From contig JACQWJ010000036.1 of NCBI GenBank assembly GCA_016209325.1, positions 1 through 51,529 on the forward strand: a stretch of DNA of 51,529 nucleotides, in the 5' to 3' direction. Made by a program: the position numbers and the translations under genes. The notes under the pieces were generated by a model. That model was not told the origin of the DNA, ran no database searches, and saw only the letters and a program-made list of their open reading frames with translations. This DNA comes from Candidatus Uhrbacteria bacterium (lineage in GTDB: Bacteria; Patescibacteriota; Patescibacteriia; UBA9934; GWF2-40-263). Shown here in pieces: positions 29,907 to 37,231 of this stretch; the first letter of the stretch is position 1, and every line of letters starts with the position of its first letter.

Positions 29907-31007
29907 TCAGGCAGCTTGACTCTCTGCTGCCTGATGGAACGGACGCGCGGGAGCCGTGAATCCGTCGATACGGATCTTACCCGCGGATTCCGGAACGGCA
30001 GCCTCGATGGCTGCGCGGCAGCGTTCCAGCTCCGCACGGAGTACATCGGCAGAAAAGGTTGAATCGACTCCGCTCTCCCCAGGTTTGGCAACGTAAATGA
30101 GCGCGAATGGATTCTCTTTCGTGAATGCCAGGCCGCTCTTTTTTACCTGATCGTCCGAAAGGGCACCCTCCGCTTCATACTGTTCGCTAAAGGCGATCTT
30201 CACGGCGAGTACCAAGGCATCCATGGCCTGCTCTGCGGTCAAGATGCGGCGTGTGATGCTGAATCCCGCCGGCATCCATTCCTGCCAAGCCGCGTTTCCG
30301 GTATCGAGCCGGCCGGTAGCGTCGTAGTAGGCGGCGCGGCCTGGATGGTCCCCGGAAATTTTCGCGTGCCCTCCATACTCGATGCCTAACTCGGCGGCAA
30401 GCGTTGTGCCGTAGGCTCGAGCGATCTCATCATCGGTTTTCCCAGTGGAAAGCTCGGGATGCGCGGCCGCAAACGCCTGGACCGCTCCACAGCCCGTATG
30501 GGTATAGACCTGCTTGATTCCGACCGCCTTGAGCTCGGCACGGAACGCGGCCTTCTCCTCGTCCTTCAGCAGGATGCCAGATCCGGGAACACGGAACGTG
30601 CCCGCGGCCCGACGCTCGTCCATGCAGCAGAGGCACGGCTTCTCGTCCGTAAACGCGTCTTCGAGCTCTGGGTACCGCTCCACGTAAGAAGCCACGCCTC
30701 CTACGCTTTCCATTTCCTCAAGAATGCGAGCGTCATACGCATGAATGAGATCTTTTGCCCGTTCCGTCTTCGGTCCGAACGGAACGGCCGCCTCAAACTG
30801 ATCCCGGTAGGACCATGGCCAGACTGGTTCTGGAGCGTGCGTCAAACCGTCGTCTGAGTCGGGTGCCCGACCAGGAACCTTTCCACGGACAACTTCGGGG
30901 TCCGGACTTTTATCGCGGGAGGGTTCTCTCTCAAGAAAAAAATCTTCAAATCCGGGAAGTTCAGATCCAAACATATGCGTTATACCATCCACAAATAACC
31001 AATGCAC
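29907..31007 (-). CDS. hypothetical protein with beta-carbonic-anhydrase-like Cys/His/Cys zinc motifs
   Basis: CCMDER (C-x-D-x-R) and, 42 aa later, HTGCGA (H-x-x-C-G). Start uncertain (GTG 31007 or ATG 30974). Confidence 0.35.
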   Translation of the reverse strand: MHWLFVDGITHMFGSELPGFEDFFLEREPSRDKSPDPEVVRGKVPGRAPDSDDGLTHAPEPVWPWSYRDQFEAAVPFGPKTERAKDLIHAYDARILEEMESVGGVASYVERYPELEDAFTDEKPCLCCMDERRAAGTFRVPGSGILLKDEEKAAFRAELKAVGIKQVYTHTGCGAVQAFAAAHPELSTGKTDDEIARAYGTTLAAELGIEYGGHAKISGDHPGRAAYYDATGRLDTGNAAWQEWMPAGFSITRRILTAEQAMDALVLAVKIAFSEQYEAEGALSDDQVKKSGLAFTKENPFALIYVAKPGESGVDSTFSADVLRAELERCRAAIEAAVPESAGKIRIDGFTAPARPFHQAAESQAA

Positions 31008-31178: not shown

Positions 31179-31255
31179 TGGTGCGCCCAGCACGACTTGA
31201 ACGTGCGACCCTCAGCTCCGCAAGCTGATGCTCTATCCAACTGAGCTATGGGCGC
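31179..31255 (-). tRNA. tRNA-Arg (anticodon GCG), CCA encoded
   Basis: Reverse complement GCGCCCA-TA-GCTC-AGTTGGATA-GAGC-A-TCAGC-TTGCGGA-GCTGA-GGGTC-GCACG-TTCAAGT-CGTGC-TGGGCGC-ACCA folds as a cloverleaf. Anticodon loop is TT-GCG-GA. Confidence 0.88.
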
Positions 31256-31435: not shown

Positions 31436-31951
31436 TCAGAGTTTATACAGCCTTCGGATCATATCCGTCAAGGTCTCGTCGGTCCGGTTCAGGTTTTCCG
31501 GGCAGTACTGGAGGAGGATGCCGCGGACCTCGTTGGGGTCCGTGTCCTCAAGTGGGATCGAGACCATGGGGTGCCACAGCTTCTGGAAGTCGAGGTACAG
31601 AAGCTTCACATCCGGCGGACTGTAGGCGATCGAGAAGTCCTTCATCTCCTGGTAGTCGTGGAAGGAATTGCCGATGACGACCCCCGTCGTCGTCAGTACG
31701 ACGTCCACTTTCTCCGGGTCCTGGAACGTCGAAAGAAGGGTGATGATCCCGACCATGAGGATGATGACCGCGAACAGGAAGTTGGCCGTGGCGATCGCGT
31801 ACACGATGAGCAGGACACCGACGACCGCCCCCGCTATGTACCAGGTGCGGGACCGTTCGTGACGGGGATACTCGTCCACCTCCCAGGACAGGAGCGGACT
31901 GCCGTACATAGCCGGAGACACGGGGGTGTCGGAATGGATGACGGGGTCCAT
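31436..31951 (-). CDS. membrane protein (2 TM plus C-terminal soluble domain)
   Basis: 171 aa. TM hairpin WYIAGAVVGVLLIVYAIATANFLFAVIILMVGIITLL. Same strand, 85 nt downstream of the CDPS fusion gene. Confidence 0.5.
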   Translation of the reverse strand: MDPVIHSDTPVSPAMYGSPLLSWEVDEYPRHERSRTWYIAGAVVGVLLIVYAIATANFLFAVIILMVGIITLLSTFQDPEKVDVVLTTTGVVIGNSFHDYQEMKDFSIAYSPPDVKLLYLDFQKLWHPMVSIPLEDTDPNEVRGILLQYCPENLNRTDETLTDMIRRLYKL

Positions 31952-32036: not shown

Positions 32037-33476
32037 CTAGCCATCTACAATGAACGTGCCGTCCCTGCCCGTGTACTTTCTGATCAACCTTGCGACGGTT
32101 CCGTCCTGCTTCAGCAATGCCAATTCCTTGTCCAACAGCGCTTTCAGCCTGGATTCGCCACGCTTCAGCATGAATGTGTTCTCGTACACGCGAATCAGGT
32201 CTGCCGAAGTCGCCACGAGTTTGACCAATGAAGCCTTATTGAAGTGTTCCGCGAGATACGGCTCGACGAACGTGAAGTCGGCGCGATTCTCGGCCACGCA
32301 CTTCAGGCCTTCGGCGTTGTCCGACAGCTGCGGAACCCGGACGCGGCGATGACGGGGAAAGTCCGCCTGCGCGATGGAGTCGGAGATGTCGTTTTCCTTC
32401 ACGGCGACGCGTGCGTTCTCATCGGCCGCTATCTGTGTGGTCGTCCTCCCATCATCGGATCGCGTCCAGACGAATACCGGACTTCTGAAAAGGGACGTGG
32501 AAAAATCCGCCTGCGCTTTCCGCTCGGGAGTGGGCCACACGATACTGCCGAACAGATCGAAGCGGTTCTGATTGAGCCCATCCACGATAACGCCGTACCC
32601 TATCTCCTCGGACCACCGGACCTGCCACCGGTATTTTTTGGCGATCTCGATAATGATCTCGTAGCAAATGCCGGAAAAGTTGTCGTAGTCCCGGTCGTAC
32701 ATGAAGGACGGGATGGAGTTCGCGAAGCCAACCCGCAGGATGCCCGTCTTTTCTATCCTGTCCAAGACGTCCGAAAAGGGCCCTTCGTTTTCCTCGCCTT
32801 CAAGTCCCCACATGGGGTTGTAGGTTTCGTAAGGATTCTCGACGAGCAGGAAGTCGAGGTGCGGCTTCGGAACGCCGTCGAACGTTCCCGCGATGTAGTT
32901 CTCGTACACGTGCCAGTTCTTATGGTAGACGTAGATGACTTGGTCGACTCCAAGGTACGTAGGGGCGAATTCCAAAAAGGCGAATTCCGACAGCAGGTAG
33001 TGGACGGCGATCCCCGTGGCCTTCTCGAGGTCCGGAATGTCCTTCTTTGAACCCTCCAACACCGCCCGTGTCGTGGCGTCTGCACTCGCATGGAATTTGT
33101 CGTTGCCGTGATAGAGAACCAAAACGCGTTCGTAAGCCTCACGATAGACGGGACGGTTTTCCACTTCCCGTTCCCAATCGAAAATCCTTACCACGTCTTC
33201 GCCATAGCCAAGGTCCTCCATGGCTTTGCGCACGCGGTTCTTGAGCCCGTTGCCGCGCGGGATGGCCTTGTCGCGCCGCGCGCGGTTTTCGGGATACCCG
33301 AACGCGACGTAAGTGGATATCGCGGGAACGTCGGCAATCAAAACGGCGACCCGCCCAAACCGCTCCACGACGGTTTTCAAGAGGTAATGAACCTCCTCGT
33401 CCTTGAAGTAGCCATTGCCCGGGCTCATCCCGATGATGGGATAGGTTGTCGGATCGATGGATATCATAGGACTCAT
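32037..33476 (-). CDS. tRNA-dependent cyclodipeptide synthase (CDPS, NYH-type) fused to a family-3 solute-binding (SBP_bac_3/PBP2) domain
   Basis: N-terminal about 230 aa: IIGMSPGNGYF (compare AlbC GISAGNSYF with catalytic Ser and Asn40), HYLLSEFAF (Y178/E182 equivalent), VYH (Y202-H203). C-terminal about 240 aa: ILRVGFANSIPSFMYD...GICYEIIIEIAKK...NRFDLFGS...TPERKAQADFSTSLF...LKQDGTVARLIRKY, typical of amino-acid-binding SBPs. Confidence 0.75.
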   Translation of the reverse strand: MSPMISIDPTTYPIIGMSPGNGYFKDEEVHYLLKTVVERFGRVAVLIADVPAISTYVAFGYPENRARRDKAIPRGNGLKNRVRKAMEDLGYGEDVVRIFDWEREVENRPVYREAYERVLVLYHGNDKFHASADATTRAVLEGSKKDIPDLEKATGIAVHYLLSEFAFLEFAPTYLGVDQVIYVYHKNWHVYENYIAGTFDGVPKPHLDFLLVENPYETYNPMWGLEGEENEGPFSDVLDRIEKTGILRVGFANSIPSFMYDRDYDNFSGICYEIIIEIAKKYRWQVRWSEEIGYGVIVDGLNQNRFDLFGSIVWPTPERKAQADFSTSLFRSPVFVWTRSDDGRTTTQIAADENARVAVKENDISDSIAQADFPRHRRVRVPQLSDNAEGLKCVAENRADFTFVEPYLAEHFNKASLVKLVATSADLIRVYENTFMLKRGESRLKALLDKELALLKQDGTVARLIRKYTGRDGTFIVDG

Positions 33477-33796
33477 CCTGTTTGGTCCCGCATGCGCTCG
33501 AGAGCACGCAACACCGTAGCGGCGACGAAATCTTTGCGTGCTTCCGCCAACACAGGCAATGTCGCCAAAACAGAGGCATTCTTTGTGGGAAGCAGTTCCA
33601 CCTTTCCGCTAGCATAGTCCGTCAGGTGGGTGAGAAATTCATCAAGCCACGATGGCGTAACGGTGAGCACACCATCGAAGTCGATGTGTATCGGCTCGTC
33701 AGAACGAAGCTGTGGACGCATGGCATTGAACGCCTCCTGTCCTGCTGGGCGGGAAATAAGCACGTTTCCAAATTTTTTCAGTTGAATGGTTTGCAT
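33473..33796 (-). CDS. STAS-like protein (DUF4325-type)
   Basis: 107 aa. GNVLISRPAGQEAF...IHIDFDGVLTVTPSWLDEFL matches my recollection of the DUF4325/STAS pattern. Its stop overlaps the CDPS start (ATGA). Confidence 0.6.
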   Translation of the reverse strand: MQTIQLKKFGNVLISRPAGQEAFNAMRPQLRSDEPIHIDFDGVLTVTPSWLDEFLTHLTDYASGKVELLPTKNASVLATLPVLAEARKDFVAATVLRALERMRDQTG

Positions 33797-33807
33797 ATCT
33801 CTAAATC

Positions 33808-34533
33808 TTAAAAGAGGATAACGGCATACGTTCCACGGATATTTTCGTCGGTCATCTTGATACGCATCGATCCGGGGCCTACGGGAATGTGAACGGCACC
33901 GATCCCCGAACGAAACAAGAGACCGATCTCCTTTGATTCCGCGACGGCACGGACGACTTTGAGTCCGTTCCCGCGCTTTTCTGGATTTCTTCCCGAAACG
34001 ATTTCCGTAAACGCCACATGAAGAGCGTCGATGTCCGTAGCCAGGTTCGGCCGAACGTGTTGCAGTGTCGCTTTGACGCCGCGTCCGCGGTCTGCCAGAA
34101 CGATGACCCGTTTAGCCACGTCGTATCCATAAAATACGCCCTGAACGTCAGGCCAATTGCCAACGTTGTGCGCGAAAGAATTGTCGCCGATTTCCCCGGC
34201 GACGAGCGTGAGAAGCGATGCCAATTCTTCGGAGATAGAGCTCTCCCGCTGAAGTTCGGCACCCATCTTGGCCACGCGGCTCGTGAAACGATCTGGTCGC
34301 TCGCAATAATATGTGTCGGAGAGTTCCGGCGCCCATGCGCTTGTTGCCCACGCACGTCCCAATAGCTGGAGATCGATGGCAAAACGCTTCAGGTTTTCTA
34401 ATCCGTAGTAGCGCTGCTTGCCCACGCTTCGTTCAGCACGAAGCTTACCGGATTTTTCCCAGTTGCGCAGAGTTTGCACGGATACGCCCAGCATCTGTGC
34501 AGCCACACCTATGCGTACGTTTTTCTCAACCAT
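33808..34533 (-). CDS. MerR/excisionase-type HTH fused to a GHKL (SpoIIAB/RsbW-like) ATPase/kinase domain
   Basis: HTH VRIGVAAQMLGVSVQTLRNWEKSGKL. N-box GEIGDNSFAHN, G1 box DRGRGV, G2 box KRGNGLKV. Confidence 0.7.
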   Translation of the reverse strand: MVEKNVRIGVAAQMLGVSVQTLRNWEKSGKLRAERSVGKQRYYGLENLKRFAIDLQLLGRAWATSAWAPELSDTYYCERPDRFTSRVAKMGAELQRESSISEELASLLTLVAGEIGDNSFAHNVGNWPDVQGVFYGYDVAKRVIVLADRGRGVKATLQHVRPNLATDIDALHVAFTEIVSGRNPEKRGNGLKVVRAVAESKEIGLLFRSGIGAVHIPVGPGSMRIKMTDENIRGTYAVILF

Positions 34534-34542
34534 AGTAATGCT

Positions 34543-34605
34543 AGGTTAAGACAAAAACCTATAAAAGTCAAGAAAATCTTATAGGTTTAATATGAAAACC
34601 TATAA
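34543..34605 (-). promoter_or_regulatory. promoter with palindromic operator upstream of the HTH-GHKL gene
   Basis: Minus strand TTGACT (34566-71), 17 nt, TAACCT (34543-48), 9 nt before the ATG. Perfect inverted 10-mers AAACCTATAA (34555-64) / TTATAGGTTT (34579-88) bracket the -35 box. A third copy lies at 34596-605. Confidence 0.5.
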
Positions 34606-34897
34606 ACCTGTTATCGATGTTTTTGCGCGCGTGAAGGGTTGCATTCACAGGCCTTCGTGTGACCGATGCGCGAGGATGGCGCGAGAATCATGTCATCCTT
34701 CTTTGGAAAATCGGCGACATTGTTCGTTACAAGAACAGCTCCTCTTTCATTTCGCGTATAATGGACCGGATATGGAGGATGGCAGGTTCACAGAACCCTA
34801 TTATATCAAGGGGAAAAGTGCCAAAGTTTAGTTCTATATAGACATCATACCGAGAAACGGGACTCCGTAAACTGAAACGTGGTAAAATAGCCACGTT

Positions 34898-35227
34898 GTG
34901 AAACAAAAACTCAAACAAAGACAGGTAAGGGAACTGGAGGAAATCATTGTTGACGGGGAACGTAAAAGTCCCGAGATCCGTCGGGCTCAAGTCGTTCTGT
35001 TGTTAAATGAAGAGGTTCCTGTTGCCTCCATTCACCGCATCACCCGTTTCAGCAAAACACGGATATTTGCTATCCGTGCGACCTATTTGAAGTGCGACAC
35101 TGATGCCTTGCGAGATAAACGCCAAGGTAAACCAAAAGAGCTGCTTACGAAGAAGCAGCGCGACGAGATCGTGAGTATCGTCGGTAAGAAAACACCCAAA
35201 CAACTCGGATTCGTAAGTGAATTTTGA
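34898..35227 (+). mobile_element. IS630-family transposase fragment (N-terminal HTH part only)
   Basis: ...EIRRAQVVLLLNEEVPVASIHRITRFSKTRIFAIRATYLKCDTDALRDKRQGKPKELLTKKQRDEI... matches the IS630/Tc1 HTH_Tnp layout. The ORF stops after 109 codons and there is no DDE domain. Confidence 0.6.
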
Positions 35228-35414
35228 ACGAGCGGCATTCTTGGAATCAGTCCTGTTTCATAGTGTGGGGACTATAGTCGAAGCCAACCGCTACGGCGCG
35301 AACGGCACCCCCTTCTCGGTCATCCTCGACAAGGATGGAAACGTCCTCAAGGTGATCGACGGTTTATATTCCGCTCAGGAGCTGCTTGACCAGGTGCTTC
35401 AGGAGCAACTCTAG
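35217..35414 (+). pseudogene. C-terminal fragment of a thioredoxin-fold (TlpA/redoxin-like) protein
   Basis: ...YGANGTPFSVILDKDGNVLKVIDGLYSAQELLDQVL resembles the Y.V.G.PT.(F/V).ID..G.(V/I) redoxin C-terminus. No CxxC-bearing N-terminal part is present. Confidence 0.4.
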
Positions 35415-35432
35415 ACGTTCACTCCAACTCTT

Positions 35433-35945
35433 ATGCGTCTGCCCACGCGCAAATCGGAAATTCTGCGTCAGGTCAAGGAAGGAGATGAGGATCGCTACCT
35501 CACTCCCGCCTCGATTGAGTGCATAAAGCGCGAGATCGACGACCTCGTCGGCCGCCAGCGTCCGGAAGCCGCGGCCGAAGTCCGACGGACGGGCGAGATG
35601 GGCGACTTCTCCGAGAACGCCGCCTACCAGATGGCCAAGGGCCGCCTGCGCCAGATTAACGGTCGCGTCGCCAAGCTCGAGGAGCGCATCCGCTACGCCA
35701 TTCCGATCGACACCTCATCCGGTGGGTCCGGCCGCGTCCGCATCGGCTCGACCGTTGTGCTGGAATGCGGCGGAAAACAGGTCACGTACGAGATCCTCGG
35801 CTCGCAGGAGACGAATCCCCTGAAGGGCCGCATCTCGTACCTGTCCCCCCTCGGCGTGGCGCTCATGGGGCATGCGGCTGGAGACATCTTGACACTCGAA
35901 GTCGGTGGGAACCACGTTCCCTACGTCATCGTCGATGTGCGGTAA
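35433..35945 (+). CDS. greA: transcription elongation factor GreA
   Basis: GDFSENAAYQMAKGRL coiled-coil tip motif and C-terminal FKBP-like ISYLSPLGVALMGHAAGD. Confidence 0.88.
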   Translation: MRLPTRKSEILRQVKEGDEDRYLTPASIECIKREIDDLVGRQRPEAAAEVRRTGEMGDFSENAAYQMAKGRLRQINGRVAKLEERIRYAIPIDTSSGGSGRVRIGSTVVLECGGKQVTYEILGSQETNPLKGRISYLSPLGVALMGHAAGDILTLEVGGNHVPYVIVDVR

Positions 35946-35968
35946 CTCGTACGCCTTATTTTTTTCGT

Positions 35969-37231
35969 ATGTCTGAACGTCCGTTTCACGAGACGATGCT
36001 GGAAATACTGAATGTCGAAAAAAGCGAACGGCGACTTCAGGATCTTTTTCTTAAGAGCGAGTCGATTACCGAAGTCCAGCTGGAGGTCTTTGTCGACGGA
36101 TTGGAAAAAGAAATGCGCGAGCAAATTTCCTCTATCGCCTCGGAGGACGAGCGCATTTCCGTTGTTCTGACCCTTTTGCAACGGAAGACCGTGGTTGACC
36201 CACGAGCCGTCATTCGTTCCATCAAGGAGCGCGGCGGCTTTGCCAAGGTCGCGCAGGAAGAAGACGATGGCGAGGTGGAACTAGACATCAGGACGAGGAA
36301 CCAGAACGGAGGCGTGCAGCGAGAGTATCTGTGGACCGACGATGCTGATGTCGAGGTGGCAGTTCAGCAGCTTCAACGAGGTATCCTAACCAAGCTACGC
36401 CACCGGTTCCGCCAGGAAGTCTGGGAGGACCGAATGGCTCTCCATGCCCTTTCCCACATCATTAAGGTCGGGGAGGTCTTCAAGCTCCTCGGGGGAGATG
36501 TCATGAAGATCACCCCCGAATGGATGGCACCCTACGTGCAAGCCAATCACCGCGCTTTGAAGAGACTGTACACGCTTCCAGAACGCAGTCCCTACGTTTC
36601 CTATGCCCTTCTCGAACGTGAGGTGGGCGAGGTTGATGGGGTTATTGAAGCATTCGAGATTCAACGGAACTTGAATTTCGACACCTTAGACGCCTTGCTT
36701 TACGACCAGGCGGGGCCCCCTTCTCTTGTCAAAACGGTTGGGTACGTTTTTGACTACGTCCGAGGCCTCGTGTTTCTGTTTGAGCGCGGGTTTGCGTTGA
36801 CCGACAATACGTTGGACAACATCGGGGTAAGCCGCGAAAATGGAACGGGTTTTGTGTTCGATTTCGGTGCGCTGTTTCAAGCCGCCGACGCCGTTCCCGC
36901 CTTCATCACCAAAAAAGACTATGGCGCACCTGAAGTGAGACAGAATAGGCTGCATCCAGCTTCAGAGGCAGGCGTCGCTTATGAGATAGGTGCATGCCTG
37001 CATTTTATTCACGCCGCCTACAGCGATCTTTCCCTACCATTTTCTGAGCGCATGGTTCTGCGCCTCGTTTCCGTGTTGGCGCACGACCTTACCGAAGAGA
37101 AGCCACAATTCCGTCTTCCTCTTTTCAAAGTATTGCAAAACCTGGAATATATCTGCCAAGAGATCAAGCGTGTCGGATTGGATGCGGATATGGCGCAATC
37201 GACGTCCACGGCGGGTAAAAAGGTTGCATAA
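35969..37231 (+). CDS. hypothetical protein with degenerate protein-kinase-like C-terminal domain
   Basis: LTDNTLDNIGV (D...N catalytic-loop-like, no HRD His), FDFGAL (DFG) and YGAPEV (APE). Start trimmed to ATG 35969 after the greA stop. Confidence 0.45.
   Translation: MSERPFHETMLEILNVEKSERRLQDLFLKSESITEVQLEVFVDGLEKEMREQISSIASEDERISVVLTLLQRKTVVDPRAVIRSIKERGGFAKVAQEEDDGEVELDIRTRNQNGGVQREYLWTDDADVEVAVQQLQRGILTKLRHRFRQEVWEDRMALHALSHIIKVGEVFKLLGGDVMKITPEWMAPYVQANHRALKRLYTLPERSPYVSYALLEREVGEVDGVIEAFEIQRNLNFDTLDALLYDQAGPPSLVKTVGYVFDYVRGLVFLFERGFALTDNTLDNIGVSRENGTGFVFDFGALFQAADAVPAFITKKDYGAPEVRQNRLHPASEAGVAYEIGACLHFIHAAYSDLSLPFSERMVLRLVSVLAHDLTEEKPQFRLPLFKVLQNLEYICQEIKRVGLDADMAQSTSTAGKKVA

Follow-up and report, generated by a model that had tools for sequence, protein, structure and literature searches.

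Gene arrangement of the locus

We analyzed a 51,529 nt stretch of DNA from a Candidatus Uhrbacteria bacterium (contig JACQWJ010000036.1 of assembly GCA_016209325.1; in the following called the window) and concentrate here on three adjoining genes on its minus strand, which we name G1, G2, and G3 in 5′ to 3′ order. A preliminary description of this DNA had read them as one dedicated system, in which a DNA-binding partner-switching pair (G1 and G2) controls a cyclodipeptide synthase (CDPS) fused to a solute-binding protein (SBP) domain (G3). Three tightly packed open reading frames (ORFs) were indeed found on the same strand, delineated here from the ORF list and by profile searches:

33808..34533, minus strand: G1, 241 amino acids (aa), MerR-type helix-turn-helix (HTH) and divergent GHKL-like ATP-binding domain
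33473..33796, minus strand: G2, 107 aa, DUF4325 STAS-like protein
32037..33476, minus strand: G3, 479 aa (more likely 476 aa), NYH-type CDPS fused to SBP_bac_3

The gap of 11 nt noted earlier between G1 and G2 was confirmed, with the G1 stop codon TAA at 33810-33808 and the G2 start codon ATG at 33796. An ATGA overlap had been described for G2 and G3. The G2 stop codon TGA (33475-33473) does overlap an ATG at 33476, but the ATG at 33467 is the likelier start of G3. In the alignment of G3 homologues, 10 residues precede the conserved IIGMSPGN motif, which fits this second ATG, and the database gene call for G3 has 476 aa; we therefore favor the start at 33467. An AGGA sits 8 nt upstream of it. 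The junction of G2 and G3 is either a 4 nt overlap (ATG 33476) or a 5 nt gap (ATG 33467), and at 5 nt or less either way it leaves no room for an independent G3 promoter. A consensus scan reported neither promoter-like nor terminator-like sites at the G1-G2 and G2-G3 junctions. The database holds the G2 of the window only as an 82 aa product from an internal methionine (P0282), while the homologues show the 107 aa ORF to be the conserved protein.

G3 is a cyclodipeptide synthase with a fused binding-protein domain

That G3 joins a CDPS to a ligand-binding SBP domain was borne out by matches to CDPS (PF16715; 102.7 bits, cut-off 27, E 3e-29), TIGR04539 (124.7 bits, cut-off 45, E 4e-36), and SBP_bac_3 (70.7 bits, cut-off 26.4, E 1e-19). 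The CDPS domain spans aa ~12-215 and is followed by an acidic linker and a type-II binding-protein domain of the SBP_bac_3 family at aa ~236-475. Residues S18, N21, Y160, E164, Y184, and H185 of G3 align to S37, N40, Y178, E182, Y202, and H203 of YvmC (3oqh in the Protein Data Bank, PDB). We take S37, Y178, E182, and Y202 (YvmC/AlbC numbering) to be the catalytic residues of CDPS enzymes, and N40 and H203 to be the signature of the NYH subfamily. Because all six residues are aligned and invariant in 27 homologues, we conclude that G3 is an intact NYH-type CDPS.

More than 200 homologues share the same fusion of CDPS and SBP_bac_3, with 51-74% identity among the 120 matches listed. Their named sources are Patescibacteria (Kerfeld-, Uhr-, Nomura-, and Parcubacteria), members of the candidate phyla radiation (CPR), except for one labeled ‘archaeon’. 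In addition, there are stand-alone CDPS genes of ~208 aa that lack the SBP domain and share 55-60% identity with the CDPS half of G3. As stand-alone versions of the same CDPS exist, the SBP domain can be regarded as an accessory fusion. The stand-alone genes were seen at L055-L073 among the loci that we sampled (e.g., L059 3269-3910; L062 2425-3051), with all catalytic motifs kept. Two of the fused homologues deviate in other ways. In the one at L053 (5902-7359), on a 1.1-Mb contig with 37% GC, TGA occurs in frame 10 times and TAA once, consistent with a lineage in which TGA is a sense codon (code 25, Gracilibacteria/Absconditabacteria type). A Kerfeldbacteria homologue (L004 8001-8573) matches only residues 4-91 and 361-476 of the query, which suggests an internal deletion or a pseudogene.

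For aa 236-468 of G3, the best PDB sequence matches were amino-acid-binding proteins and AncCDT-1 (5t0w), at 4e-12. The consensus WPTPER...FS of the domain resembles the ligand-carboxylate-binding motif of polar-amino-acid binding proteins. The domain is related in sequence to these proteins and to cyclohexadienyl dehydratase, but it is internal to the enzyme and has no transporter genes next to it; no ABC (ATP-binding cassette) permease or ATPase genes lie beside G3 in the window or beside its homologues in L005 and L006. Since the domain starts only at ~aa 236 and has no signal peptide, we take it to be cytoplasmic.

Like YvmC, AlbC, and Rv2275, G3 belongs to the CDPS family with its Rossmann-like fold and possesses all six signature and catalytic residues. 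Unlike them, it carries a cytoplasmic SBP_bac_3 domain, is not accompanied by tailoring enzymes or a gene cluster, and comes, with the one exception mentioned, from CPR sources. No tailoring, export, or biosynthetic-cluster genes were found near G3, which is flanked by housekeeping genes. The enzymes characterized by Gondry et al. are limited to a fusion with a P450 and to a stand-alone CDPS of the XYP type (Parcubacteria RAAC4_OD1_1), the latter being the only CPR enzyme among them. C-terminal CDPS fusions receive a one-line mention in PMC5816076, beyond which our full-text searches found no description of fused CDPS and SBP proteins in CPR.

G1 joins a MerR-type HTH to a GHKL-like domain

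The N-terminus of G1 is a MerR-type HTH (aa 7-52; MerR E 4e-12 in Pfam) that passes the cut-offs of both PF00376 (46.1 bits, cut-off 28.2) and PF13411 (37.6 bits, cut-off 21.6); its best PDB sequence match is CueR (E 7e-4). A helix at ~aa 45-65 leads to a second domain at aa ~85-241, which had been described as a GHKL core of the SpoIIAB/RsbW type with recognizable N, G1, and G2 boxes. Three such boxes are present (N, GEIGDNSFAHN; G1, DRGRG; G2, RGNGLK), and the family invariants follow one another in GHKL order: E114/N118, D148-x-G150-x-G152, and G188-N-G190-L191. A total of 1587 homologues were found, of which the best 120 are 66-81% identical to G1 and come from Patescibacteria (Uhr-, Magasanik-, Kaiserbacteria, and others).

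The HTH and the invariant boxes thus stand, but the match to HATPase_c_2 remained below threshold, at 17.1 bits and E 0.0056 with a cut-off of 27.4 bits. Further results also weigh against a GHKL assignment. HATPase_c_2 was matched at E < 0.1 in only 8 of 27 G1 homologues, and a PDB sequence search with profiles of the C-terminal domain gave nothing meaningful. The AlphaFold2 model of G1 is poor, with a predicted local distance difference test score (pLDDT) of 58. An hhalign comparison with SpoIIAB placed the N and G1 boxes in register, yet with a probability of only 4%; the identity of the SpoIIAB sequence used was confirmed by its match to 1til (2e-68). The sub-threshold Pfam score, the missing PDB match, the low hhalign probability, and the low-confidence model would also fit a C-terminal domain that is no ATPase or kinase. 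Its fold would then be GHKL-like but degenerate, or an unrelated one for ligand binding; G2 would be a structural co-factor, and G1 an ordinary one-component regulator. We consider this unlikely. The N-box Glu and Asn (family pattern GEIGNNSFDHN), the DxGxG (DRGxG), and the GxGL (RGNGLK) residues are invariant, in the right order and at the right spacing, even in sequences only 30-48% identical to the G1 of the window, and several members of the domain family match HATPase_c or HATPase_c_2 at 5e-4 to 1e-3. Moreover, Foldseek searches with the low-confidence model yielded mainly GHKL N-domains (Hsp90, TRAP1, GyrB; E ~2e-3, TM-score ~0.3) for the C-terminal domain, besides some MerR-family HTH matches to the N-terminus. 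The in-register alignment with SpoIIAB also speaks for it. Each of these signals stays below its threshold, but on balance we regard a GHKL fold of the C-terminal domain as probable.

G2 is a DUF4325 protein adjacent to G1

The preliminary description had seen in G2 a STAS-like protein with a serine placed like the phosphorylated serine of SpoIIAA (within TPSWLDE). G2 matches DUF4325 at 24.2 bits (Pfam cut-off 23). This is its sole Pfam match, and no STAS family of the PF01740 type was hit. Among its 404 homologues, the best 120 show 70-86% identity. T47-P48-S49-W50 is invariant in the G2 homologues and lies at the N-terminal start of a helix (48-61). This is reminiscent of the phosphorylated serine of SpoIIAA (S58), at the start of the helix after the third strand, but T47 and S49 could not be placed in register with it.

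The DUF4325 match and the invariant TPSW motif agree with the earlier view of G2, but no sequence similarity to SpoIIAA was found. With the SpoIIAA query, validated against 1auz, hhalign detected no relationship (probability 0.08%), and the G2 profile had no match among PDB sequences. The AlphaFold2 model of G2 is confident (pLDDT 91); in Foldseek it retrieved RsbV, SpoIIAA, 4hyl, SLC26 STAS domains, and MlaB at TM-scores of 0.5-0.56, all with E > 1 and hence without a significant match. Because of the lacking sequence relationship and the lack of a significant Foldseek match, the roles of kinase for G1 and phospho-acceptor for G2 are drawn by analogy only.

G1-G2 is a self-standing pair in Patescibacteria

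To describe the surroundings of the pair, we sampled 10 contexts, seven of G1 and three of variants with another type of N-terminus. G2 follows G1 after 10-15 nt in 7/7 G1 contexts, and a DUF4325-type gene follows the GHKL-like gene in all 10. The genes after G2 vary. They are convergent in three cases (HTH_3, acyltransferase, and PNP_UDP_1, a nucleoside phosphorylase); the other four contexts have an RsgA GTPase gene, a 115 aa gene without assigned function, tRNA-synt_2d (after 318 nt), and an ABC transporter gene (after 312 nt). G1-G2 is an autonomous pair of Patescibacteria.

With a profile of the G1 C-terminal domain, we recovered 343 clusters (50% identity) among 1.84 billion representatives, the named members of which are CPR (Moranbacteria, Peribacteria). 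Besides the MerR HTH type of ~242 aa, the family includes proteins with a MarR/TrmB-like winged HTH (P0461), with a cytidylyltransferase-like N-terminus (P0399), and without any extra domain (~195 aa; P0413). In these three variants, the next gene encodes 92-97 aa and is annotated as DUF4325 in two of three. As all N-terminal variants keep a DUF4325-type neighbor, the conserved core consists of the GHKL-like domain and the DUF4325 protein, with an exchangeable N-terminus. The variant loci are L097 (705-1591), L099 (3001-4084), and L100 (3001-4258), the form without HTH stemming from Peribacteria; one of the non-MerR variants adjoins a HicB-like antitoxin gene.

G1-G2 resembles a GHKL/STAS-like pair whose output acts on DNA directly. 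As in SpoIIAB-SpoIIAA and RsbW-RsbV, a small GHKL-type protein (N, G1, and G2 boxes in a core of ~150 aa) stands beside a STAS-like protein of ~100 aa with an invariant Ser/Thr at a helix N-terminus, and the pair is strictly co-inherited. Differing from both of these systems, the kinase-like gene comes first, which reverses the order, G2 belongs to DUF4325 without sequence similarity to SpoIIAA, and the G1 domain stays below the HATPase_c_2 threshold. A further difference is that an HTH on the GHKL protein itself provides the output; a sigma factor gene was absent beside the pair in 10/10 contexts. The earlier notion of a partner-switching pair wired to DNA instead of a sigma factor is supported by the overall look of both proteins and by the fused HTH, but not by GHKL and STAS profile matches above cut-off. 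Full-text searches retrieved no description of a DUF4325 function or of an HTH-GHKL/STAS-like switch.

A conserved operator array at the G1 promoter

Upstream of G1, the preliminary description had noted a promoter guarded by a palindrome. We found three copies of TTATAGGTTT there, arranged with the promoter elements as follows:

34579..34606, minus strand: upstream operator pair, consisting of TTTATAGGTTT (34596-34606) and its inverted copy AAACCTATAA (34579-34588), 7 nt between the arms
34566..34571, minus strand: -35 hexamer TTGACT of the G1 promoter, part of a composite conserved in seven G1 loci
34555..34565, minus strand: third operator copy, TTTATAGGTTT, abutting the -35 hexamer within the 17 nt spacer
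34543..34548, minus strand: putative -10 hexamer TAACCT, 9 nt ahead of the G1 ATG; read from the sequence and not reported by a generic promoter scan

The three copies of TATAGGTTT in the 51.5-kb window all lie at 34555-34604. Their chance expectation is 0.05, and three or more copies occurred in 0/100 shuffles. Two of the arms form a perfect 10 nt inverted repeat (34579-34588 and 34596-34605).

The composite CTTGAC(T/A)TTTATAG(G/A)TT, made up of the -35 hexamer and the operator, is common to 7/7 G1 loci, and all seven have extra copies of TTTATAGGTTT or AAACCTATAA upstream, giving arrays of 3-5 half-sites. Inverted operator pairs precede G1 in L010, L012, L093, L094, and L095, and direct copies do so in L007. 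Both the window and L007 have 17 nt between -35 and -10; in the other loci, the -10-like hexamers (TATTAT, TATCAT, TAATAT) lie 6-9 nt from the ATG. A Shine-Dalgarno sequence is lacking at the G1 start in the window (34531-34548) as well as in L007, L010, L012, and L093-L095. Given this and the short distance between the -10-like hexamer and the ATG, the mRNA from which G1 is translated is probably leaderless or nearly so in all seven lineages.

A scan covering 610 kb of loci found operator clusters solely upstream of G1 genes, which argues for autoregulation by G1. No such clusters precede G3 in other genomes, where only scattered single 8-mers occur. For the same reason, we rejected the possibility that the G1 operator marks G3 in trans elsewhere.

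Like the MerR family proteins CueR, SoxR, and MerR, G1 has an HTH and wing matching MerR profiles and an inverted-repeat operator at its own promoter. Unlike in these proteins, the effector domain is swapped for a GHKL-like domain. Promoters activated by MerR proteins typically have spacers of 19-20 nt; the G1 promoter differs from them in its 17 nt spacer, in an operator that abuts the -35 hexamer, and in its array of 3-5 half-sites. The short spacer and the half-site array indicate repression rather than activation by DNA distortion.

Occurrence of the three genes in other genomes

We collected loci of G3 homologues from genomes (4 loci), the Joint Genome Institute (JGI; 2 loci), and metagenomes (79 loci), plus one further contig. 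The genome scan, performed with a single sequence, yielded these 4 loci only, and the statistics come from the alignment-based metagenome scan. A tblastn search of 92 fetched loci, including those of G1-G2, with G1, G2, and G3 as queries detected neither G1 nor G2 at any G3 locus and G3 at no G1-G2 locus. Of the G3 loci, 53 reach 1.2 kb or more beyond the CDPS start on its upstream side and thus have room for G1-G2. Conversely, none of the 10 contexts of the G1-G2 type contained a CDPS. The co-occurrence expected for a dedicated three-gene system was thus not observed, and the trio is in no other genome of our sample.

No neighboring gene family of at least 80 aa recurs beside the G3 homologues across 86 loci. 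The closest relatives of G3 (71-74% identity), however, share a shorter neighbor, an XRE gene of 68-70 aa (HTH_3 E 1e-14 to 1e-17), the end of which overlaps the CDPS start (ATGA) in L005, L006, L014-L017, L050, and L101. Other relatives have unrelated neighbors. The stand-alone CDPS in L057 is likewise preceded directly by an XRE gene, with a partial match in L055. The XRE genes were located at:

L005 7792-8004
L014 144-356
L015 5804-6010
L016 151-357
L057 397-603
L101 89-301

The XRE proteins belong to at least 3-4 diverged types with 37-46% identity between types, and public gene calls missed the gene in L005 and L006. In the window, this XRE gene is absent, and G1-G2 occupies exactly the slot that it holds in the closest relatives of G3.

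The preliminary description had gone further and regarded the switch as committed to an enzyme that consumes aminoacyl-tRNA. This view did not hold, given that the trio is absent elsewhere, operator clusters are not found upstream of other G3 genes, and the closest relatives carry XRE instead. A DNA-bound partner-switch that gates a ligand-sensing CDPS for signaling, toxin production, or defense has some arguments on its side. The spacing of 5 nt or less between G2 and G3, together with the lack of promoter-like and terminator-like sites at the junctions, would make G3 dependent on the G1 promoter here, and the XRE genes of close relatives indicate that coupling between a regulator and the CDPS recurs. 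On the other hand, the counts of 0/53 and 0/10, the absence of operator clusters from other G3 loci, and the failure to find tailoring or export genes nearby contradict a dedicated system. The proposed role in conflict or defense found no backing either: PADLOC returned only an HTH-level match for G1 and none for the GHKL-like domain or G2, and G1 was not detected on the viral contigs scanned. A PHROGs scan gave HTH-level matches and one unannotated PHROG for the SBP domain, which lends no support to a phage origin. As a conserved entity, the three-gene system is thereby largely refuted, and we judge a dedicated system of this kind to be improbable.

Instead, the locus is likely a lineage-specific operon fusion of two independent, previously uncharacterized CPR modules, G1-G2 and G3. 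Two considerations temper this conclusion. The sample of the G1-G2 type comprises 10 contexts, so a rare linkage to CDPS could occur elsewhere, and the exact placing of G3 in relation to the regulator slot means that the linkage could be functional and selected in this lineage instead of accidental.

Origin of the juxtaposition

The GC content at third codon positions (GC3) is 0.59 for G1 and 0.55 for G2, compared to 0.75 for G3 and a window median of 0.72. These low values are at about the 10th percentile of the ORFs in the window and not unique, a few other ORFs having similar ones; they do no more than suggest that the acquisition was recent. Over the 0.9 kb preceding G1 (34534-35432), the GC content is 0.46, and there are gene fragments and no intact gene:

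34898..35227, plus strand: truncated winged-HTH ORF like a transposase N-terminus (HTH_29 1.2e-5, below cut-off)
35217-35414: ORF fragment with the look of a C-terminal piece of a thioredoxin/redoxin-like protein

We read the first of these as IS630-like. The region is probably a rearrangement scar; we looked for repeats on both sides as possible boundaries of an insertion and saw none that convinced us. Together, the position of G1-G2 in the XRE slot, its lower GC3, and the transposase remnant beside it point to a lineage-specific replacement of the regulator. They suggest that G1-G2 came with a segment of lower GC content, by insertion or recombination upstream of G3, and that this segment took the place of the XRE gene.

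Alternatively, G1-G2 could be a horizontally mobile, addiction-like or conflict module, for instance a kinase-type relative of toxin-antitoxin systems with an autoregulating HTH, that came to lie beside G3 by chance. In favor of this reading, it is a tightly coupled and autoregulated two-gene operon in varying genomic contexts, it has GC3 values below those of its neighbors with a transposase remnant adjoining, its identity of 66-86% across CPR lineages is very high, and one variant resides beside the HicB-like antitoxin gene. Yet conflict genes evolve fast, and such strong conservation, of the sequence as well as of the operator, would be more usual for a housekeeping regulator. Moreover, no toxin-like domain was found, PADLOC had no match for the GHKL-like domain or G2, and the viral contigs scanned were devoid of G1. 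We give this explanation very little weight.

Other genes around the locus

Downstream of G3 lie an ORF for a predicted membrane protein of 171 aa (31436-31951, minus strand) with a very high GC3 of 0.86 and a tRNA-Arg(GCG) gene (31179-31255, minus strand), the sole match in an Rfam scan of 30.8-36.2 kb. We considered the membrane protein as a conserved partner of the fused CDPS and rejected it, as it had one weak match elsewhere. Further outward, two ORFs have no Pfam match: one of 366 aa at 29907-31007 (minus strand) and one of 488 aa at 35765-37231 (plus strand). The latter, as listed, overlaps the 3′ end of greA, and its true start is probably further downstream.

Proposed mechanism and implications

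The domain content, the separate conservation of the two modules, the conserved operator and promoter, and the XRE slot are shown by the data; the model of the locus that follows goes beyond them. G1, probably as a dimer, would bind the TTATAGGTTT array that flanks and invades its own -35 region and spacer, and would most likely repress its own promoter by occlusion and not by the DNA distortion known from MerR proteins; occlusion appears likelier because one site abuts the -35 hexamer within a spacer of the optimal 17 nt. The GHKL-like domain is predicted to bind ATP and engage G2, and it may phosphorylate T47 or S49 of G2. This interaction would toggle DNA binding in a manner dependent on ATP or phosphorylation, as a partner-switch with a fused HTH output and no sigma factor.

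G3 is predicted from its family to use two aminoacyl-tRNAs for the synthesis of a cyclodipeptide. The cytoplasmic SBP domain fused to it is likely to bind a ligand resembling an amino acid, either as an allosteric sensor or as a module for binding substrate or product. We infer from the absence of a gap that in this genome G3 is almost certainly co-transcribed with G1-G2. The G1-G2 module would have arrived with the low-GC segment scarred by an insertion sequence and replaced the XRE gene; with the XRE gene replaced, G3 would now be read through from the G1 promoter, and cyclodipeptide synthesis would be subordinate to the switch. The most far-reaching version of this model is that G1-G2 represents an undescribed, sigma-independent partner-switch, widespread in CPR bacteria and with exchangeable output domain, which here captured a ligand-sensing CDPS by displacing an XRE repressor. 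We put this forward as a tentative and rather doubtful proposal.

If true, it would tie a signal derived from aminoacyl-tRNA to a switch, and G1-G2 would extend partner-switching beyond sigma factors, to an output domain that binds DNA and is part of the switch protein itself. The locus also illustrates that genes packed tightly in a single genome need not form a system, the linkage here likely being a local rearrangement. The CPR or Patescibacteria have tiny genomes with few recognizable regulators. With 66-86% identity across many CPR lineages and a conserved operator, G1-G2 offers a good entry into gene regulation in this group. CPR bacteria are also generally thought to depend on hosts and to have limited biosynthetic capacity. 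An intact and widely conserved CDPS fused to an SBP domain points to cyclodipeptide production as a common, unstudied trait of the CPR, possibly one involved in the interaction with their hosts.

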